Source: a virus. From it: a stretch of 5,084 nt of DNA. This document shows, one piece after another, positions 1-5,084 of the stretch. Where the stretch lies: the IMG/VR virus record IMGVR_UViG_3300029057_000122, positions 1-5,084 of that record; one strand, 5' to 3'. The notes below the pieces were generated by a model. That model had not been told where the DNA came from, ran no database searches, and worked only from the letters and a program-made list of their open reading frames with translations. The position numbers and the translations under genes were made by a program. Positions within the stretch are counted from its first letter, which is position 1. Every line of letters begins with the position of its first letter.

Positions 1-95
1 CTCCAATACCATTGATATAGATGTTGCCGATACCGGCCTTAACATCATCAATGCTTTGATGCAAAATGTCGGTCAGTTTGCTTTCATTGTTTCTC
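1..95. repeat. Terminal redundancy: exact copy of 4990-5084, marking the circular junction of a 4,989-nt genome
   Basis: Bases 1-95 (ctccaataccattgatatagatgttgcc...ttcattgtttctc) recur identically at 4990-5084. An ORF runs in frame across this join. Confidence 0.9.
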
Positions 96-154
96 TCCTT
101 TGTTTCGGTGCTGTTGTTCTCCGTGTGCTTATTCGAAAGGCGGTGGAAGGGTGA
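2..154 (+). CDS. C-terminal 50 codons plus stop of the same pIII-like CDS, wrapped around the junction
   Basis: Frame-2 codons from position 2 continue ...SNTIDIDVADTGLNIINALMQNVGQFAFIVSLLCFGAVVLRVLIRKAVEG*, with the stop TGA at 152-154. Confidence 0.7.
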   Translation, partial: SNTIDIDVADTGLNIINALMQNVGQFAFIVSLLCFGAVVLRVLIRKAVEG

Positions 155-282
155 CATTTCTTGATTTCTTCAAAGGCGTTATTACTTTCTTCGGTGCTGG
201 CGGGGCTTACGTCATTGCTTTTGTTGTCCTGCTCGTTGGTCTTGGTGTTTATAAGTTTGTGAAGGACTGGTTGCCATGGTAA
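151..282 (+). CDS. 43-aa leaderless small hydrophobic virion protein with pVIII/Pf3-coat-like architecture; a major or minor coat candidate
   Basis: GTG at 151 overlaps the pIII-like stop (GTGA), a translational-coupling arrangement, with GGTGG/GGAAGG just upstream. Product MTFLDFFKGVITFFGAGGAYVIAFVVLLVGLGVYKFVKDWLPW has an acidic N-terminus, a Gly-punctuated TM core (compare M13 pVIII ...AMVVVIVGATIGIKLFKKF) and a Lys-containing C-terminus. The ORF track lists this frame from TTG 100, but that start lacks an SD. Confidence 0.5.
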   Translation: MTFLDFFKGVITFFGAGGAYVIAFVVLLVGLGVYKFVKDWLPW

Positions 283-296
283 ATTTTGTTGAAACT

Positions 297-446
297 ATGA
301 AGGTGTGCACAGCCTTTGTTGCTAACATTCTTTCTATGTCTTTCTTCGGTTTCGGCACCTTCGGCAATTTCGTTCTAGTTTGTTTAGCACTTTCGCTTGT
401 CGGCTTTGTGCTTCGTTCAATCTGGGGTGGTGATAACAGTGATTGA
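297..446 (+). CDS. 49-aa small hydrophobic membrane protein (pVI/pVII/pIX-type candidate)
   Basis: ATG at 297. Product MKVCTAFVANILSMSFFGFGTFGNFVLVCLALSLVGFVLRSIWGGDNSD has two hydrophobic segments. Its 3' end overlaps the next start (GTGATTGA). The SD is weak. Below the size cutoff of the ORF track. Confidence 0.4.
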   Translation: MKVCTAFVANILSMSFFGFGTFGNFVLVCLALSLVGFVLRSIWGGDNSD

Positions 447-1074
447 GATTCCTAAAATTGTATACGGCCCTTGGCAAGATGCTCATGATGGCCGCATGTA
501 TTATACCGTCATGTATGACGGTCAAGACAAGTCCGAGGATATGCTTGTAGACGCTTACGATTATCTCGTAGCTTCTGCAAAGGCTGTGGAGACGCTGGAT
601 CAGCAGCAGTCCGCATCTGAGTTGGTGCCTGCGCAGTCCCCGCCTGAGCCGGCAGAAATTGTTCCTGTTGAGGAAGACCATACCGGCCTGCCGGAATATG
701 TGACAGCTCCTGAGGAGATGGAAGAGCTGCCGTTTGAAGGGAGTTTAACCGCATATGATGACCGAGCAGCAAATACTCCAGCTTTGTATGCTAATCTCCC
801 TGCTGTTAGTAATTCTTTCACTAACATTATGGATTGGTTCGGCGATACGTTTTTTATTGAACGTACTGAGACGGTTCATACATCCGGCTATACATCTCAA
901 AGGATCTCCACTTCTTCTTCGTATCAACTTATTCAACTGCCGTATGAGGAAGATTCCACGACTACTTCCCAAGTTCTCAACCCGCAAGCGTGCGTTTCTG
1001 CTCTTCTTGTTGTCCTCGTTTTTATTACTACTGTTACTTGGCTTAAAAACGCGATCTGGGGGCGCATGTACTGA
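439..1074 (+). CDS. 211-aa acidic, Pro/Ser/Thr-rich protein with a C-terminal TM anchor; function unknown. Track start is TTG 397, giving 225 aa
   Basis: Frame-1 ORF with GTG 439 preceded by GGGGTGGTGA (alternatives are TTG 397 and ATG 496). Contains an acidic Pro-rich linker ELVPAQSPPEPAEIVPVEEDHTGLPEYVTAPEEMEELPFEG, a Ser/Thr-rich region, and a C-terminal hydrophobic helix ACVSALLVVLVFITTVTWLKNAIWGRMY. No signal peptide. Stop TGA 1072-1074 overlaps the next ATG (TGATG). Confidence 0.6.
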   Translation: MIEIPKIVYGPWQDAHDGRMYYTVMYDGQDKSEDMLVDAYDYLVASAKAVETLDQQQSASELVPAQSPPEPAEIVPVEEDHTGLPEYVTAPEEMEELPFEGSLTAYDDRAANTPALYANLPAVSNSFTNIMDWFGDTFFIERTETVHTSGYTSQRISTSSSYQLIQLPYEEDSTTTSQVLNPQACVSALLVVLVFITTVTWLKNAIWGRMY

Positions 1075-1187
1075 TGGAAATTCTACCTTTTCAGTTCTGC
1101 TTCGGTATATTCTCGGTTCCTGAAATTGGCTATTTCATTGTTTTTGCCGCTGTTTTTTGCATGTTGGTTCTCCTATTCCGTCCGTGA
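1074..1187 (+). CDS. 37-aa very hydrophobic small protein (pVII/pIX-like minor virion or membrane protein candidate)
   Basis: ATG 1074 overlaps the upstream stop by one nt. Product MEILPFQFCFGIFSVPEIGYFIVFAAVFCMLVLLFRP. Third codon positions are T-rich. Confidence 0.4.
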   Translation: MEILPFQFCFGIFSVPEIGYFIVFAAVFCMLVLLFRP

Positions 1188-1216
1188 GTAGGTTCCAAAA
1201 TATTTTCGAAAGGGTG

Positions 1217-1315
1217 ATGACTTCAGACTCCTACTACTTCTATCATTGGTACGCTGCTTTCTCAGGTCGGCGAATTTTTCACTCAGATGATTACTTGGAT
1301 GGGTCAACTGATTGA
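1217..1315 (+). CDS. 32-aa ORF with a strong SD; possibly a leader ORF translationally coupled to the coat-like ORF it overlaps
   Basis: AAAGGGTG then ATG 1217. Product MTSDSYYFYHWYAAFSGRRIFHSDDYLDGSTD. Stop 1313-1315 lies 14-26 nt past the ATGs of the overlapping frame-3 ORF. Confidence 0.2.
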   Translation: MTSDSYYFYHWYAAFSGRRIFHSDDYLDGSTD

Positions 1316-1415
1316 CTTTTACGAGGAGCAGCCAATTCTCCTTGTTTTCGTCATTCTGACGATTGCAAGTATCGTGCTTCGTCTTCTCCGTCGCTGGATT
1401 CCCGGTCGCTCCTAA
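1287..1415 (+). CDS. 42-aa leaderless major-coat-protein candidate (Pf3/pVIII-like)
   Basis: Product MITWMGQLIDFYEEQPILLVFVILTIASIVLRLLRRWIPGRS has an acidic N-terminus (DFYEEQ), a 16-residue hydrophobic core and a C-terminal cluster of four Arg, the canonical inovirus major coat layout. It is followed immediately by a strong terminator, as gene VIII is in Ff phages. There is no clear SD. The frame is open and T3-biased upstream to 1221 without a canonical start, so the true N-terminus is uncertain (ATG 1299 is also possible). Confidence 0.45.
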   Translation: MITWMGQLIDFYEEQPILLVFVILTIASIVLRLLRRWIPGRS

Positions 1416-1420
1416 TGTGA

Positions 1421-1470
1421 GAGAAAACGCCGCCGACCATTTTTTTGGTCGGCGACGTTTTCTCGTTTTA
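1421..1470 (+). terminator. Rho-independent terminator or attenuator hairpin after the coat-like gene
   Basis: GAGAAAACGCCGCCGACCA (1421-1439) pairs with TGGTCGGCGACGTTTTCTC (1446-1464), a 19-bp stem with one mismatch and a T6 loop, followed by GTTTTAAG. Confidence 0.6.
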
Positions 1471-1487
1471 AGAAAGGATTATATGTC

Positions 1488-2108
1488 ATGCTTTATGGTA
1501 TTCTTATCTTTTGTGTTTGCTGGTTATTTGTTTATATCGATAACTATTGCAAAAACCCCTACAAATTGGAGGCTGTTGTGGGTTCAAAAGGTTCTGGAAA
1601 ATCTCTGTATATGTCTCGTGTTGCTGACCGCTGGCTTCGTTCTAACAAGGGGCTTATCTATTCTAATATGGGTATTGGTTACGAGTTAGAATCGGAATAT
1701 TGGAAACAGTCCTTTCTCCCTGATTCCCTTATTCTCATAGATGAGATTGGCGTCCTCCATTCTAACCGTGATTTTAAGTCTATGCCCCGTGAAGCTGTTG
1801 AATTTTTCAAGATGCAGCGCAAGTATCATCTGACAATTATTGTTAGCAGTCAGACCATGGATTTTGATAAAAAGATTCGTGACCTCTGCGACCGTATCTA
1901 TTTATGTAACCGGATTGGCTGGTTCTGCCGTCTCACTCCCTATCGCTCTTGTATCGCTATGGAACATCGCCCTGAGGGAGGCCAAGAGCTGGTTAACACG
2001 GTGCGAAAGGCGGGTCGGGCTAAGTGGTATACTATTCCAAAGTCCGTGAAGCAGGTAAGTGGTTTAGAATACGATACGGAGCAGGTTATCAGCAAGACCT
2101 CGAAATAA
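1488..2108 (+). CDS. Zot/pI-family assembly (morphogenesis) ATPase, short form of 206 aa with only the N-terminal P-loop domain
   Basis: AAAGGA lies 9 nt upstream of ATG 1488. Walker A GSKGSGKS and Walker B LILIDEIG are present. The sequence aligns in pattern with M13 pI (VTGKLGSGKT; LLVLDECG; HARKLGWDIIFLVQD versus QRKYHLTIIVSSQ). An N-terminal hydrophobic segment MLYGILIFCVCWLFVYIDNY precedes the P-loop. There is no C-terminal TM or periplasmic domain. Third codon positions are strongly T-biased. Confidence 0.85.
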   Translation: MLYGILIFCVCWLFVYIDNYCKNPYKLEAVVGSKGSGKSLYMSRVADRWLRSNKGLIYSNMGIGYELESEYWKQSFLPDSLILIDEIGVLHSNRDFKSMPREAVEFFKMQRKYHLTIIVSSQTMDFDKKIRDLCDRIYLCNRIGWFCRLTPYRSCIAMEHRPEGGQELVNTVRKAGRAKWYTIPKSVKQVSGLEYDTEQVISKTSK

Positions 2109-2115
2109 AAAACTT

Positions 2116-2154
2116 CCCCCCGTGCCCTTTAGGGTTAGGGGGGTTGTTTTTTTT
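2116..2154 (+). terminator. Rho-independent terminator after the pI/Zot gene
   Basis: CCCCCC-GTG-CCC-TTTA-GGG-TTA-GGGGGG forms a stem with an internal loop, followed by TTGTTTTTTTT. Confidence 0.65.
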
Positions 2155-2409
2155 AATAATTTTTATTTTTTTTATCTCCTTGAGCCTTGAAAGCCTTGCT
2201 ATTGCTGACTTTTTTGTTTCTGGTGCATCGTGCGGCTCTCCGGGCAGTTGCAACGTTTAGTCACGCGATAGCGTCTCCACCGCGTCCCCCGTCCCCGCAA
2301 GGGCAAAGCCCTTGCCCTTCCAAAACAAACTGGCAGGGGCTACCGTTGCGCTCCTTGCGGCGTGATGGTGGGGAAGGTGTAATACCCCCACCTGAGTAGA
2401 AGAAAGGGT
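2155..2409 (+). other. Non-coding intergenic region: an AT-rich tract then GC-rich structured DNA; candidate rolling-circle origin and packaging signal
   Basis: No ORF here shows coding bias. The region has T-runs (2155-2222), then GC-rich DNA with a tandem GTCCCC/CGTCCCC repeat and a perfect hairpin. This is the analogue of the Ff intergenic region and lies directly upstream of the rep promoter. Confidence 0.45.
2297..2315. repeat. Perfect 8-bp stem, 3-nt loop hairpin GCAAGGGC-AAA-GCCCTTGC in the intergenic region
   Basis: Exact inverted repeat read from the sequence. It is flanked by C-rich and G-rich runs and may be an origin nick-site or packaging hairpin. Confidence 0.4.
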
Positions 2410-2438
2410 TTGACAAGCCCCCCCGCCTGTGGTATGGT
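2410..2438 (+). promoter_or_regulatory. Sigma70-type promoter for the rep-ssb (and probably whole-genome) transcript
   Basis: TTGACA (2410-2415), a 17-nt spacer containing a C7 tract, a TG extended element at 2430-2431, and TATGGT (2433-2438). RBS AAAGGAGA at 2454-2461 and ATG at 2467. Confidence 0.6.
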
Positions 2439-2466
2439 TGCTGTAAAGAGTGAAAGGAGAAATATC

Positions 2467-3612
2467 ATGAGTACTTACGTTTTACGCCTTGACTATGCAA
2501 CTTTTGCCTTTACGCCCGGGTCGGTCGATTTGAACCGTGTGCAGTCGGTTCTTGCTGCTGGTGCTGACCTTGCTTTTCGTCAGTTTGGCATTTATGACAC
2601 TTCACCTTATCAGTCTCCCTTGGGATTGTACTATAAGCCGTATTGCGGCTCGAAAGAGAATCCGCATATCTTGCAAGTCTCCGGCTCGGCCTGTGAGCAT
2701 TTCCGTGAAACGCTCCCTTGTCTTGGTAAGGTTCTCCGCGATGGCGGGGAGCAGGCGCATTTCCGGCGTCTTGATTTCGCTTTCGATGTTATTATGTCCC
2801 GCTCCGACTGGCGTAAGTTTCTTTCTGATTGTTTCGCCTATTCGATGGAGCAGAACCGTCATAGAAAAAAGTTCCTGCTGCAAGGTTCCGGCGAAGCCAT
2901 GACTATTTATATCGGTTCTCGTAATTCTGACCACTTTTTCCGTGTCTATAACAAGACGCTTCAAGACCCTTCCTATTTGTTTATCAACGCTGACGGCACT
3001 ACTACTCCTGTTGCCGATGATCAGTGCGTTATTCGTTATGAGATTGAGTGCAAGCGCGTTAGTCGTTCTCGTGGCGGTCAGAATGTTACTTTTGACCCCT
3101 CCCCCATGTTTGACTGGTATTATTCCGATTCCCAGTTGCTTTTTGATGAGGTCAAAAAGCAGTGGCTTTCTTTTGGTAATGAAGTAATGCTCCCTGCCGG
3201 CTTCGAAGATGCTTCTTTTGTCACTGACATTGACGTGAAACACCTGCATCCGCTTGTAGGGGATATTGTATCCCCTTATAAGGAAGTCTGCTATGCCAAT
3301 GTCTCCGCGCGTCTCCATGACTATCCTCACGCTTTCGAACGGTCGCTTGAATTCGCCGCCCAGCGCTATGGCGCTTATGTACCCTATCTGCTTAGAGATG
3401 AGCGTTTGCTTACCATCTGCAAGGAAGCTGCTCGTGTTCGCTTCGGCTTTGACATTGATTTTTATGTTGACTTTGATGATACAGGCCGTTTTGAATTTGA
3501 AGTGATTTCCGATGATTCTTTCTCCCCGTGGTCAGAGGTCGGAGAGTTTGAACAAATAGATATTCTAAAAGGAAAGGAGCAATTAGTCTATGCGGATTTT
3601 GGTTGTAGGTAA
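2467..3612 (+). CDS. Rolling-circle replication initiation protein, Rep_trans family (381 aa)
   Basis: Motifs VSGSACEHF...HFRRLDFAFDV and IYIGSRNSDHFFRVYNKT match the Rep_trans (PF02486) signature seen in plasmid and inovirus Rep proteins such as RstA. Strong SD and ATG at 2467; the track start at 2410 lies inside the promoter. Third codon positions are T-biased. Confidence 0.9.
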   Translation: MSTYVLRLDYATFAFTPGSVDLNRVQSVLAAGADLAFRQFGIYDTSPYQSPLGLYYKPYCGSKENPHILQVSGSACEHFRETLPCLGKVLRDGGEQAHFRRLDFAFDVIMSRSDWRKFLSDCFAYSMEQNRHRKKFLLQGSGEAMTIYIGSRNSDHFFRVYNKTLQDPSYLFINADGTTTPVADDQCVIRYEIECKRVSRSRGGQNVTFDPSPMFDWYYSDSQLLFDEVKKQWLSFGNEVMLPAGFEDASFVTDIDVKHLHPLVGDIVSPYKEVCYANVSARLHDYPHAFERSLEFAAQRYGAYVPYLLRDERLLTICKEAARVRFGFDIDFYVDFDDTGRFEFEVISDDSFSPWSEVGEFEQIDILKGKEQLVYADFGCR

Positions 3613-3832
3613 ATCCCGCCGAGCTGGTACCTCTAAGGCTGGCAAAGACTACGATTTTACTACTCTCATGGTCGAGTATGACATGCGTGCAAACGATGAT
3701 AACTCGGGCGTGCAGGTCGATAGAATCAACGTTAGTGCCTCTATGATGCCTTTCGCGTTGGTAGAAGTTGGTGCAACCTATAATCTCGACTTTGACCGTA
3801 ATGGGTATCTGCTCGGTGTCGAAAAAATTTAA
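3590..3832 (+). CDS. Putative ssDNA-binding protein (gene V analogue), 80 aa
   Basis: AAGGAG lies 10 nt upstream of ATG 3590, and the ORF overlaps the rep 3' end by 23 nt. Size and position immediately after rep match inovirus pV. There is no recognisable motif, so the call rests on synteny. Confidence 0.5.
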   Translation: MRILVVGKSRRAGTSKAGKDYDFTTLMVEYDMRANDDNSGVQVDRINVSASMMPFALVEVGATYNLDFDRNGYLLGVEKI

Positions 3833-3854
3833 TTTCAACCTCCATTCACTCTTT

Positions 3855-3870
3855 GGCCGCTCCGGCGGCC
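3855..3870. repeat. GC hairpin GGCCGC-TCCG-GCGGCC immediately upstream of the tRNA
   Basis: Perfect 6-bp GC stem with a 4-nt loop. No T-tract follows, so it is not a terminator. It may be a processing or stability element. Confidence 0.35.
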
Positions 3871-3873
3871 TCT

Positions 3874-3947
3874 GGCGGGGTGGTGCAACGGTAGCACATC
3901 ACGCTCTGAACGTGAAACTTCTGGTTCGAATCCAGACCCCGCAACCA
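3874..3947 (+). tRNA. tRNA-Gln (anticodon CUG) with an encoded CCA
   Basis: Manual cloverleaf fold. Acceptor 3874-3880 pairs with 3937-3943 (6 bp plus a G1.A72 mismatch). U8. D-stem GTGC/GCAC with loop AACGGTA (G18 G19). Anticodon stem TCACG/CGTGA with loop CTCTGAA (U33, CUG, A37). A 4-nt variable loop. T-arm TCTGG-TTCGAAT-CCAGA. Discriminator A, then CCA. Resembles bacterial tRNA-Gln. Confidence 0.8.
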
Positions 3948-3967
3948 TTTAGAAAGGAAGTGCCGAT

Positions 3968-5084
3968 ATGCGTAAATTTAAGATGGGCATTCGCAGACTC
4001 GGGGCTTCCTTTGCTTCTTTTTTAATGGTTTGTTGTCTTTCCGCTCCGGCGTTCGCTGCTAATAATTGGCCTGTTTCTCCTTCTGATTCTGATTTTCGGG
4101 CTCATCCGAATTCTTGGTATGTTTGGCAGCGTAAATCTATTTCTGCTTATACCGGCTATGAGTTAATTTGTAGTCCTGTTGAAGAATCTTCTAGATACCC
4201 TGATTGTTTGTCGTCTGGTTGGTTTCCATATTCTACCGATTCTGGAACTTGGTCTTATTCTTCATCTAATTCTAAGCGTACTTATATGTATGCTGTTCCT
4301 TATATTCCTAGTTCTGATTTCGGTTATCTCTCTGATTTTCCCGTTTTCCCTGTTGGTGAACCTTCTTTTTCTACTGGTGTTCTTCGTGTTTACCCTGTTA
4401 AGTGGCGCGGGTATTTGAGTGGCATTTCTGATGTCTTTTCTGACCGTTCTGTATTCGGTTATTTGACTTCTTGGCCTTCCAATTCTTCTTCTTCTTCTTA
4501 TTCTGATTATTTCAATAACGAAGTTCTTAATTACAAGCCTATTTATTTTCCATCTAACATTTTCTTCTTTGGGGATAAAACTGATACTTCGACTAATCAT
4601 ACTTCTTTCTCCATTCAAAATGGAGATAATAATTTCTGGGCTACTCCTTCTAATAGTAATTATTTGCATTTGTCCAAGTCTCATTTGAGTACACCGGGGT
4701 TTCGTTCTTTCCCCTCTAATTTTTCTATTCCCTCTTCAGATGTTGGGCTCGTTTTTTGTAAGCGACCTTCTGGAGATGGTATGCACGTTTATAACTCGGA
4801 ATTTGATGTTTCTCTATCTTTTGGATTATCTCTTTGGGTTCCTGACGCCTTGCTTCCTGCTGATGTTGCTGTCGGTGACTGGATTTCGAAGACTGATGTT
4901 GAATCTCTTCAGGATCAGCTGGTAAAAGATTTCGATGTCAACTCCGATACTCTAGAAAACTCAAAGCAAAATTTCGATTCTTGGCAAAACTCCAATACCA
5001 TTGATATAGATGTTGCCGATACCGGCCTTAACATCATCAATGCTTTGATGCAAAATGTCGGTCAGTTTGCTTTCATTGTTTCTC
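3968..5084 (+). CDS. pIII-like minor coat/adsorption protein. Runs to the window edge and continues across the circular junction to a TGA at 152-154; full length about 391 aa
   Basis: ATG at 3968 preceded by AAAGGAAG 8-9 nt upstream. N-terminus MRKFKMGIRRLGASFASFLMVCCLSAPAFA|ANNW is a classical signal peptide with an AxA cleavage site. The body is Ser/Tyr/Phe/Pro-rich with paired Cys. The C-terminus (read in copy 2-154) is a hydrophobic anchor FAFIVSLLCFGAVVLRVL followed by IRKAVEG. Third codon positions are T-rich. The frame has no stop through 5084 and is missing from the ORF track only because it has no in-window stop. Confidence 0.7.
   Translation, partial: MRKFKMGIRRLGASFASFLMVCCLSAPAFAANNWPVSPSDSDFRAHPNSWYVWQRKSISAYTGYELICSPVEESSRYPDCLSSGWFPYSTDSGTWSYSSSNSKRTYMYAVPYIPSSDFGYLSDFPVFPVGEPSFSTGVLRVYPVKWRGYLSGISDVFSDRSVFGYLTSWPSNSSSSSYSDYFNNEVLNYKPIYFPSNIFFFGDKTDTSTNHTSFSIQNGDNNFWATPSNSNYLHLSKSHLSTPGFRSFPSNFSIPSSDVGLVFCKRPSGDGMHVYNSEFDVSLSFGLSLWVPDALLPADVAVGDWISKTDVESLQDQLVKDFDVNSDTLENSKQNFDSWQNSNTIDIDVADTGLNIINALMQNVGQFAFIVS
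4990..5084. repeat. Second copy of the terminal redundancy (same as 1-95)
   Basis: Exact 95-nt match to the window start, inside the coding sequence of the pIII-like gene. Confidence 0.9.

Follow-up and report, generated by a model that had tools for sequence, protein, structure and literature searches.

A complete short Zot/pI-type ATPase with a predicted N-terminal anchor in a gut inovirus, and an overlapping reading frame that is probably a by-product of composition

Here, we analysed a window of 5,084 nt (IMG/VR record IMGVR_UViG_3300029057_000122, positions 1 to 5,084), which represents a circular 4,989-nt gut inovirus genome. With good confidence we conclude that the zot gene of this ~5-kb phage encodes a complete assembly ATPase anchored by its N-terminus, and that the hydrophobic frame-1 ORF overlapping its 5' end is a compositional by-product. 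A local dip in the synonymous diversity of zot, which coincides with the overlapping ORF, is explained only incompletely by this reading, and we therefore weigh recombination, selection on zot itself and a young overlapping gene as its possible causes.

The genome carries matches to Rep_trans (Pfam) and phrog_27843, which provide an RCR Rep context, an 80-aa RstB-like protein (PHROG match) and hydrophobic ORFs of 37, 42, 43 and 56 aa in the ORF list. An RCR Rep, a small ssDNA-binding protein, several 30-90-aa single-TM proteins and a circular genome of ~5-10 kb, which together define the genome context of inoviruses, are thus all present, and with all ORFs of the genome accounted for, none matched Secretin. 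Four porcine Inovirus sp. genomes (GenBank MT135292/293/296/305) are 84-86% identical and share the gene order. The host appears to be a single-membrane, spore-forming member of the Clostridia, an assignment based on one junction-containing contig (L054) and three MAG bin labels. In L054, the phage segment adjoins DNA for RadA, CotJA/CotJB, a CotJC-type Mn catalase and an MFS transporter; the three other matches come from Roseburia, Clostridia and Oscillospiraceae bins. The bin label of L054 itself, 'Alistipes', was rejected as the host because its flank holds the CotJA/B/C spore-coat genes of Firmicutes. The strong Shine-Dalgarno sequence (SD) in use at zot was counted toward a Clostridia host as well, and secretion of inoviruses by gut Clostridia is known from Enterocloster (PMC10061712).

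Within this genome, the structural operon ends with zot (Table 1). In the hairpin upstream of it, a terminator-like site is predicted at 1431-1454 and the DNA fold has a z of -4.7; the stem is kept in 20 of the 21 aligned clade members, and relatives at 57-84% identity have an analogous hairpin of different sequence, also upstream of zot. The position of zot between two terminator-like hairpins suggests a low, attenuated expression.

Table 1. Features at the zot locus, in window coordinates
Feature	Position	Strand	Remarks
Hairpin, GC-rich, with T-rich loop and T-rich tail, terminator/attenuator-like	1421..1464	+	between coat-like gene and zot
Shine-Dalgarno AGAAAGGA for ATG1488	1471..1478	+	AAGG[AT] ends 9 nt before zot ATG
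Frame-1 ORF, 68 codons, considered non-coding and a by-product of composition	1483..1689	+	ATG 1483, TAG 1689
zot / gene I homologue, complete 206-aa morphogenesis ATPase (predicted)	1488..2108 incl. stop	+	ATG 1488, TAA 2108; profiles, structure
Reduced synonymous-site diversity in the close clade, zot codons 1 to ~70	1488..1700	+	~half of rest
N-terminal hydrophobic helix LYGILIFCVCWLFVYIDNY, residues 2-20, predicted reverse signal-anchor	1491..1547	+	KD19, AF2
Walker A / P-loop GSKGSGKS, residues 32-39	1581..1604	+	aligns to 2R2A P-loop
Walker B LILIDE, residues 81-86	1728..1745	+	aligns to M13 pI LLVLDEC (D88/E89)
Terminator-like hairpin and T-run directly after zot	2124..2144	+	conserved in L001-L004

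The first-pass annotation of this DNA, made from its letters, had described a pI homologue of 206 aa with the Walker A and B motifs of the ATPase domain, and this was borne out by the ORF, by Pfam and by alignment. The product scores 25.3 bits against the Pfam profile Zot PF05707 (cutoff 20.3, E=1.2e-5), matches phrog_25712 over its full length, and is also matched by phrog_197 (Zot-like, E=2.7e-9) and phrog_1675 (protein I of M13, E=1.2e-3). A comparison with M13 pI using hhalign gave a probability of 86% (E=5e-6). A profile was required to reach the PDB, where it matched 2R2A (E=5e-5); the single-sequence search of the PDB returned nothing significant. The AF2 model (pLDDT 80.6, with the C-terminal 22 residues disordered) also found 2R2A as its best PDB match in Foldseek (E=1.7e-7, 165 aligned columns, TM-score ~0.5). 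In a 30-sequence family alignment, G32, K34, G35, G37 and K38 of Walker A and I84, D85 and E86 of Walker B are invariant, and the counterparts of the Walker residues in M13 pI, K14 and D88/E89, are essential (PMC5408679). Judged by its sequence, the zot product is a Zot/pI-type P-loop ATPase and a predicted assembly and extrusion motor, a member of the Zot / pI morphogenesis ATPases, i.e. the FtsK-HerA-type P-loop NTPases of Tubulavirales. It is 97.5-99% identical to the proteins of the porcine Inovirus sp. records in GenBank.

How is such a short ATPase held at the membrane? Hydrophobic residues ahead of the P-loop had already been pointed out, and indeed residues 1-21 are the sole TM-like window of the protein (Kyte-Doolittle 19-mer mean 1.84), with AF2 placing a helix at residues 2-20 at a pLDDT above 90 (91-93). 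The alignment with 2R2A begins at zot residue 29 and chain residue 7, so that ~22-25 residues of zot form an N-terminal addition. Lys/Arg follow the helix, and the positive-inside rule fits a predicted topology with the N-terminus outside and the ATPase in the cytoplasm. The segment is hydrophobic in all relatives, although its sequence is variable. No hydrophobic window follows residue 21 by Kyte-Doolittle; a C-terminal TM and an extracytoplasmic domain are lacking, in agreement with the earlier statement that the Ff-type TM and periplasmic half are missing. An N-terminal TMD in pI-like proteins is already recognised in the literature: Roux et al. 2019 count it as a pI-like feature, with one or two TMDs located N- or C-terminally (PMC6813254), and the present protein has one by prediction. 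In phage B5, taken as a Gram-positive comparator, Orf8 has a P-loop and no strongly hydrophobic window at the threshold used, which is conservative in that the known TM of M13 also scores below it.

The protein had been called truncated. It is indeed short, but the same layout recurs throughout its relatives, and a truncation is thus not upheld. In 42 close genomes, Zot has 204-207 aa; the seven intermediate relatives with contigs that were read have 205-220 aa, and three relatives at 57% have 206-207 aa. The relatives overall span 204-222 aa, and all of them share the N-anchored short design. A profile search of distant cluster representatives found a hydrophobic segment before Walker A in 125 of 139, with 115 classed as N-only and 1 as C-only. 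Most relatives have an extra 50-100 non-hydrophobic residues at the C-terminus, which places this clade at the short end, and BFVD holds Zot proteins of gut Inoviridae of 197-207 aa with the same fold. As far as sequence comparison can tell, the short Zot is complete, and its N-anchored layout is the standard design of a large family rather than the result of a loss.

The 68-aa ORF that opens in frame 1 at ATG 1483 exists exactly as first quoted, and frame 1 is open already from 1363. It had been proposed as a membrane partner analogous to pXI. Indeed, the frame is open in 108 of 110 close genomes; a control ORF in the same relative frame is, however, kept in 102 of 110, and the frame-1 region has half the substitution rate. 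ATG1483 is found in 91 of the 110 and absent from 19 (ATT, TAT, ATA or ATC in 14, TTG in 5), and its three positions are conserved no better than their neighbours in the spacer. Outside the close clade, the suggested check of conservation went against the ORF: stops near codons 27-33 interrupt the frame in all sister lineages, namely 7 intermediates, 3 distant relatives and 14 further sister contigs. By handle, contigs with stops in this frame are L005-7, L045-L051, L053, L054 and L180-L193, with the Zot architecture the same in all of them. The frame is broken in all lineages with a Zot identity at or below 85% (also given as below ~90%). Since these related genomes have the same short Zot and lack the open frame, the reading as a pXI-like partner is not supported; moreover, pXI is an in-frame product. 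The sole frame-1 stop of the sister lineages was removed by one third-position substitution at Val31, from the ancestral GTA-G to GTT/GTG-G. Even in the close clade, two genomes have a stop at frame-1 codon 29, one of which, L041, is a viable-looking recombinant, and where the identity of Zot is 100%, that of the frame-1 'protein' is ~76%.

The caveat raised at the outset, that T-rich sequence depletes stop codons, turned out to be the better explanation. The T-rich third positions of zot become second positions in frame 1, which yields F/L/I/V/M codons and excludes stops. When synonymous codons were resampled for the same Zot, 9-12% of trials kept the frame free of stops through codon 67 (a chance openness of 0.09-0.12). 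In the same relative frame, rep, the 211-aa gene and the pIII-like gene also contain hydrophobic ORFs, as does zot a second time at 1840-2049, with lengths of 61-122 aa. The +1 frame is nearly stop-free across the whole of zot in every lineage. The T content of third positions (T3) at the 5' end of zot equals or exceeds that of the rest in all lineages and peaks (0.64-0.67) in cluster 4, a cluster with a broken frame 1. A bias toward substitutions conservative in the frame-1 product (BLOSUM; p=0.001-0.003) was rejected as a coding signal, because control regions give the same coefficient, which points to a generic codon or context effect. Most likely, the frame-1 ORF is thus a by-product of T-rich codon usage and not a partner gene.

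In the close clade, synonymous diversity drops at the 5' end of zot. Third-position variability is 0.31 over codons 1 to ~70 and 0.64 over the rest (Fisher p=2.5e-5). Among 4-fold T-major sites, pi is 0.135 versus 0.363 (p=0.0015), and T>C changes occur at 20 of 38 sites in the dip versus 39 of 42 elsewhere; as the dip remains within these 4-fold T-major sites, composition alone was rejected as its cause. The best change-point lies at codons 67-70, near the frame-1 stop, with a flat optimum from 58 to 79. Observed over expected values in the dip range from 0.3 to 0.8, and the dip is strongest over the two predicted frame-1 helices, but it is graded, extends to around codon 80 and reappears over codons 190-200. 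T>C changes that are radical in frame 1 (L>P, F>S) show an 11-17 fold depletion, compared with 2.8 fold for V>A, and the rank order of tolerated changes is the same in control regions. In three of four sister comparisons, with the frame broken, there is no dip (ratios 0.82-1.03), whereas the P0142 sister group shows an equal dip (0.40) despite 2-3 stops in the frame. A faster synonymous divergence of the 5' part from sister lineages was not upheld against the clade consensus and with more sisters. Other genes gave no usable genome-wide baseline of synonymous diversity, as their proteins fall to 28-72% identity and only 6 full-length rep genes were recovered. Searches of IMG/VR for sister-clade populations with P0004, P0039 and P0017 yielded the same clade only, or nothing, and one metagenome scan gave 80 loci, all of the same clade. 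Together, the dip, its change-point, the depletion of radical T>C changes, the sister comparisons without a dip and the lack of a conserved nucleic-acid structure as another explanation fit a young overlapping gene, and the by-product model accounts for them incompletely.

Could the dip have arisen by recombination rather than by coding? The upstream hairpin and the 5' segment of zot may form a module junction that is homogenised among mosaic genomes, an explanation that we offer tentatively. Zot is at least 91.7% identical clade-wide, next to neighbour genes with the low identities given above, and L041 combines a cluster-4-type 5' third (6/59 synonymous differences) with a clade-type remainder. 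The P0142 dip stems from two members with a divergent 3' part, the profile is graded with its second dip at the 3' end beside the other junction, and the segment distance matrices are weakly correlated (r = 0.2-0.3). However, four-gamete incompatibility within the 5' segment is 0.65-0.71, which argues against the recent spread of one haplotype and by which a recent selective sweep was also judged unlikely. The reduction is moreover present in 92% of pairs at a fairly uniform ratio (median 0.53, IQR 0.40-0.67).

A further conceivable cause, of which we are rather doubtful, is that zot itself is under selection at the level of nucleic acid or translation. Such selection might favour a U-rich, weakly structured mRNA for the controlled initiation of a toxic protein, or a codon pacing suited to co-translational insertion of the N-terminal anchor; with the same reserve, it might preserve a cis-acting DNA element, for instance the minus-strand origin or part of a packaging signal. 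T3 is enriched in the 5' third of nearly all lineages regardless of the state of frame 1, codons 1-20 show an excess of synonymous identity among sister lineages too (0.71 vs ~0.58), and a conserved hairpin lies directly upstream. The strongest dip (codons 42-54) falls ~35-40 codons past the start of the anchor, where the helix would leave the ribosome. Yet the coding part shows no significant structure (RNA z = +0.47, covariation term -1.8), no compensatory pairs turned up in the zot 5' region beyond the upstream hairpin, and the three sister comparisons without a dip again speak against it.

A young, clade-specific overprinted gene for a 68-aa two-helix membrane protein is another candidate cause of the dip, which we consider unlikely. 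Purifying selection on a de novo frame-1 protein would explain a halved synonymous diversity that ends near the frame-1 stop, is deepest over the two helices and disfavours L>P and F>S changes; the ORF intact in nearly all close genomes and the dip-free comparisons with a broken frame point the same way. Such a gene, in what would be an improbable course of events, would have originated through loss of the GTA-G stop at Val31 by one synonymous change, in a frame whose hydrophobic character T-rich codon usage had already set, and through the appearance of an ATG in the spacer, 2 nt longer here; assembly accessory, superinfection exclusion and modulation of Zot translation are candidate roles. 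Against it stand a canonical start missing in 14 of 110 genomes (with TTG in 5 more) and no better conserved than its surroundings, an SD only 4 nt from ATG1483 compared with 9 nt from the zot ATG, and the codon-29 stops, including that of L041. The control ORF kept nearly as well, the control regions with their identical order of tolerated changes and BLOSUM coefficient, the P0142 dip over a stop-ridden frame, the graded profile with its recurrence and the divergence of the frame-1 product under an unchanged Zot all weigh in the same direction. We therefore give little credence to a de novo 68-aa protein that overprints the first third of the ATPase gene and is now under purifying selection in an abundant clade of the human and pig gut.

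The start of zot itself is well marked. In 91 of 107 genomes, AAGG[AT] ends 9 nt before its ATG, with a conservation of 85-100% at positions -16 to -11. Among five genomes, no second position varies in residues 1-67, and across 110 these residues are nearly invariant. It is extremely improbable that the 206 aa represent a defective or truncated pI, or that translation starts downstream and leaves out the hydrophobic N-terminus: the protein is ~140 aa shorter than M13 pI and its Pfam score is just above threshold, but the length and layout are kept in hundreds of genomes and in 125 of 139 distant representatives, the constraint on residues 1-67 is strong at the amino-acid level, the next in-frame Met (M42) lies beyond the P-loop, and the ATG is found in 109 of 110 genomes with its SD 8-10 nt upstream.

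For the complete, N-anchored ATPase, we propose a simple mode of action. Inserted as a reverse signal-anchor, the helix may leave one or two residues outside and Lys/Arg inside, which would tether the ATPase to the membrane on its cytoplasmic side. There the ATPase may, analogously to Ff pI, oligomerise and use ATP to drive the swap of the ssDNA-binding protein for membrane-embedded coat proteins, so that the filament is extruded. The periplasmic, secretin-contacting half would be absent because there is nothing to contact, given a genome without a secretin gene and an apparent single-membrane host. An ATPase domain with an N-terminal anchor alone would then be the minimal export motor of a filamentous phage, likely in single-membrane hosts, and such a motor, without a pXI-like or secretin-contacting part, would offer a simple system for studying extrusion across one membrane. 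The assignment also corrects how a very abundant protein of gut phages is annotated; one 90% cluster counts 3,081 member sequences. A general trap becomes apparent as well: when the genome of an ssDNA phage is T-rich, long and convincing 'membrane protein' ORFs arise in the +1 frame of every gene.

How does this system compare with known ones? Ff (M13/f1) pI shares the homologous P-loop core, with Walker A and the LILIDE-LLVLDEC correspondence, and, like Ff pI, the present protein is (by prediction) membrane-tethered with a cytoplasmic ATPase. Like Ff gene I, zot belongs to the structural/assembly module of a small ssDNA filamentous phage, with expression downstream of a terminator located after a coat gene. 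The 348 aa of M13 pI, however, include a TM at 254-270 and, at the C-terminus, a periplasmic domain in contact with the pIV secretin, and pXI is the in-frame internal product of gene I from Met241, with the TM and periplasmic domain of pI (PMC5408679). Unlike Ff pI, Zot has its anchor at the N-terminus and no extracytoplasmic domain, and its genome encodes no secretin; unlike with pXI, zot has no TM-containing in-frame internal product, and the frame-1 ORF is out of frame. With the overprinted genes of phiX174 (B, K, E), the frame-1 ORF shares its location in an alternative frame of an essential gene of a compact ssDNA phage, here with a hydrophobic product, and a locally reduced synonymous diversity of the host gene. 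It differs from these genes in its non-conserved start, its poor RBS geometry, its interruption in all sister lineages and in being indistinguishable from control ORFs of the same frame.

The Zot of CTXphi and of a Neisseria prophage (2R2A) is the best match by profile and structure, the whole zot product corresponding to its N-terminal ATPase domain; the C-terminal TM and periplasmic half are missing here and a ~22-25-residue hydrophobic helix is added. In V. cholerae Zot, the C-terminal half carries the tight-junction-active fragment, and since this half is missing, labels such as 'Zot toxin' or 'moron' in gut viromes are no sign of toxin potential. The porcine Inovirus sp. records in GenBank name the protein 'protein H' and PHROG 25712 is listed as of unknown function; its predicted identity as an assembly ATPase comes from the present analysis. 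The N-TMD pI-like clusters of Roux et al. 2019 and the short 'Zot' proteins of gut Inoviridae, known from sequence alone, have the same architecture as the protein described here.

The protein encoded by zot is a member of the pI/Zot family by sequence, motifs, fold, genome context and the predicted N-terminal transmembrane domain (TMD), a type of domain that Roux et al. 2019 (PMC6813254) list as a pI-like feature. It clears the Pfam Zot threshold. Both the gene and the ORF overlapping it in frame +1 have exactly the positions and lengths described in the first-pass annotation, and the ATPase domain proposed there is indeed present, with Walker A (GSKGSGKS, residues 32–39) and Walker B (LILIDE, residues 81–86) following a segment at residues 1–21 that is the sole TM-like hydrophobic window of the protein. 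The family profile matched PDB entry 2R2A (E=5e-5, the alignment beginning at Zot residue 29 and chain residue 7), the N-terminal domain of Neisseria Zot. The same entry was the top match (E=1.7e-7) of an AlphaFold2 model (pLDDT 80.6) with a confident helix at residues 2–20, the P-loop fold next and then a disordered tail. With hhalign, the Zot family aligned with M13 pI over the Walker B region. The protein would work like pI/Zot.

Is this short protein a truncated pI, as had been suggested? Here, we found the same N-anchored layout in relatives and in most distant representatives, and conclude that it is the norm of the family. Zot is 204–207 aa long in the 42 genomes of the close clade that cover the whole gene, 205–220 aa in seven intermediate relatives (63–84% identity, contigs read) and 206–207 aa in Dulem virus 75 and bajarodino viruses 60 and 79; some protein-search products are called up to 261 aa, these being lengths as called from annotated start sites. 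All relatives share a hydrophobic, sequence-variable N-terminus, followed by an NPY motif and the P-loop. Searching 1.84 billion cluster representatives with the profile gave 756 matches at E<=1e-10. Among the best 139 with a recognisable Walker A (about 200–345 aa), a hydrophobic segment precedes this motif in 125, of which 115 have no other such segment, and just one of the 139 has a C-terminal segment only. Nor can the start lie downstream, the other option raised, because the next in-frame Met (M42) is past the P-loop, the SD ends 9 nt before ATG1488 in 91 of 107 genomes and the first 67 residues are nearly invariant. The window Zot is thus nothing out of the ordinary: it belongs to a known kind, the class with an N-terminal anchor, which surveys have already recognised and which is experimentally uncharacterised. 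Near-identical sequences are already public, mislabelled as 'protein H' or as of unknown function: GenBank MT135292/293/296/305 carry ill-fitting microvirus-style gene names (protein A, C, F, H), under which the Zot/pI ATPase appears as 'protein H', the Rep_trans initiator as 'protein A' and the pIII-like protein as 'protein C'.

The overlapping ORF had been proposed as a membrane partner analogous to pXI, with the caveat that T-rich sequence depletes stops. It is the caveat that better accounts for the ORF. The third position of zot codons is the second position of the overlapping frame and is T-rich (0.51 in codons 1–67, 0.38–0.60 across genes), which forces this frame to F/L/I/V/M and away from stops. 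The equivalent frame holds hydrophobic ORFs of 61–122 aa elsewhere, in rep (three), the 211-aa gene, the pIII-like gene (two) and again in zot (1840–2049), and resampling of synonymous codons left the overlapping frame open in 9–12% of trials. It is open in 108 of 110 distinct close genomes, and a control ORF over zot codons 118–186 in 102 of 110. The start at -5 is ATG in 91 of the 110, TTG in 5 and ATT/TAT/ATA/ATC in 14; its positions are conserved at 93%, 97% and 88%, not above adjacent spacer bases, and only 4 nt separate it from the SD. In every lineage checked outside the close clade (seven intermediates, three 57% relatives and fourteen more sister contigs), the frame is broken near codons 27–33 and the -5 ATG is absent, with TTG there in the sister group cluster 4. 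In all six intermediate lineages aligned codon by codon, Val30 or Val31 is encoded as GTA-G, reading TAG in frame +1, where the close clade has GTT or GTG. The family works without this ORF, which rules the ORF out as its counterpart of pXI.

In the close clade, zot codons 1 to ~70 show about half the synonymous diversity of the remainder. Third-position variability is 0.31 against 0.64 (p=2.5e-5), diversity at 4-fold T-major sites 0.135 against 0.363 (p=0.0015), and T>C is seen at 20/38 sites against 39/42. The sliding observed/expected ratio is 0.3–0.8 in the 5' part and has recovered by about codon 81, with a change-point at codons 67–70 (flat optimum 58–79). This dip is real but too unspecific to establish a gene. 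Homogenisation of a junction by recombination is at least as likely a cause: genomes are mosaic around the highly conserved zot, and intragenic recombination at the boundary is real, since L041 (IMGVR_UViG_3300029709_000161) joins a cluster-4-type 5' third (6/59 synonymous differences to cluster 4 over the first ~67 codons, including its stop in frame +1) to a clade-type remainder (33/124 differences to the clade consensus versus 48/98 to cluster 4). Selection on zot mRNA or DNA is likewise at least as likely as a gene; in the zot 5' region, no conserved structure was found besides the upstream hairpin. A young, clade-specific overprinted gene we regard as improbable. The tolerated T>C classes rank as in controls, yet changes that would be radical in the overlapping frame are more strongly depleted; in sister groups whose frame is broken, the dip is missing from three comparisons (0.82–1.03) and equally deep in a fourth (0.40). 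T enrichment at third positions of the 5' third is general across lineages, and highest where the frame is broken. A selective sweep is unlikely, because most site pairs are four-gamete incompatible. Two candidate signals were discarded: a preference for changes conservative in the overlapping frame was of equal size in control regions, and an excess 5' divergence from sisters vanished with the clade consensus as reference.

Elsewhere in zot, the family-invariant Ser59 (1662–1664) is TCT in some clade members and AGT/AGC in others, a switch taking two nucleotide changes, and frame +1 there reads L, V or A. A second, smaller dip lies at codons 190–200 (~2055–2087; observed/expected 0.42–0.53), beside the downstream terminator.

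The window is a circular genome of 4,989 nt (its first 95 nt repeated at the end), 34% T, with all genes on the + strand.

Features of the genome
Feature	Position	Strand	Remark
Pf3-coat-like ORF, 42 aa	1287-1415	+	MITWMGQLIDFYEEQPILLVFVILTIASIVLRLLRRWIPGRS; upstream of first hairpin
Terminator-like hairpin upstream of zot	1431-1454 (whole hairpin 1421-1464)	+	
Overlapping ORF, 68 aa	1483-1689	+	start ATG1483
zot, 206 aa	1488-2108	+	start ATG1488
Terminator-like hairpin downstream of zot	2124-2144		
Rep_trans initiator	2467-3612	+	
RstB-like ssDNA-binding candidate, 80 aa	3590-3832	+	
tRNA-Gln	3874-3947	+	
pIII-like protein, 391 aa	3968 wrapping to 154	+	signal peptide, C-terminal anchor
Hydrophobic ORFs, 43, 56, 37 and 42 aa		+	
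211-aa protein gene		+	

The hairpins on both sides of zot fit low, attenuated expression. The upstream one is strong and GC-rich with a T-rich loop, and an analogous hairpin of different sequence, in some cases without a T-run, occupies the equivalent site even in relatives whose Zot is only 57% identical. Termination or attenuation is one conceivable role for the upstream hairpin, a packaging signal or origin-type element another. The 42-aa ORF, with its acidic N-terminus, hydrophobic core and basic C-terminus, resembles a major coat protein of the Pf3 type that has no signal peptide. All relatives keep the RRW(I/L)PGR motif at its C-terminus; ATG1287 has no SD in front of it, and a 56-aa gene is called at this site in sister genomes, so the gene may begin elsewhere. 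After the zot stop the window has only the terminator, where several relatives carry a gene of 65–108 aa starting at or overlapping that stop (621–947 / 631–897 in L005–L007, 1286–1483 in L049), a more plausible place than frame +1 for lineage-specific assembly accessories. The 358-nt intergenic region 2109–2466, GC-rich and repeat-like at 2270–2400, is the probable location of the replication origin(s), and directly before rep lies a promoter-like site close to consensus (TTGACA-17-TGnTATGGT, 2410–2438). Between the ssb-like and pIII-like genes of this 5-kb inovirus stands a complete tRNA-Gln(CTG). Relatives carry Gln-TTG (L049, L050, L055), Thr-CGT (L053) or Thr-AGT (L057) at the equivalent place, and L005–7, L047, L051 and L056 have none; such a phage tRNA may serve as an attP mimic through which the phage integrates at a tRNA of the host, or may be functional.

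Members of the clade turn up very often in gut metagenomes of humans and pigs (37 loci in IMG/VR and 80 in metagenomes; 3,081 members in one 90% protein cluster of Zot), and four GenBank porcine 'Inovirus sp.' genomes are 84–86% identical to the window. Several observations point to Clostridia as host. A contig of 95.9 kb (L054, CAVDWO010000002.1; 84% Zot identity) ends in a phage-like segment, GC rising from 0.47 to 0.62 in a flank that encodes RadA, CotJA/CotJB, a CotJC-type Mn catalase and an MFS transporter. The CotJ genes are spore-coat genes of endospore-forming Firmicutes, at odds with the bin label Alistipes onderdonkii, which looks wrong. The segment could represent a prophage, integrated or degraded, beside radA; beyond zot it has four small ORFs in place of rep. 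Three further matches lie in bins of Roseburia, Clostridia and Oscillospiraceae, and inovirus production is documented for gut Clostridia (Enterocloster; PMC10061712).

In summary, the analysis yields a useful correction to the annotation of Zot, a warning that hydrophobic ORFs overlapping a gene can be spurious, and a single population-genetic signal, modest in size, that is left unexplained. Because the Zot N-terminus is uncharged before the helix and has Lys/Arg after it, we infer a reverse signal-anchor, which would put the ATPase on the cytoplasmic side of a single membrane. ORF and domain searches found no secretin gene in the window genome, which would explain why the half of pI that touches the secretin is missing. 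M13 pI spans the membrane at 254–270 and contacts the pIV secretin through a periplasmic domain, and pXI starts in frame at Met241 (PMC5408679). Unlike this Ff pI/pXI system, the window system has neither the C-terminal TM and periplasmic domain, whose lack the first-pass annotation had rightly noticed, nor an in-frame pXI, and it is therefore not of the Ff type.
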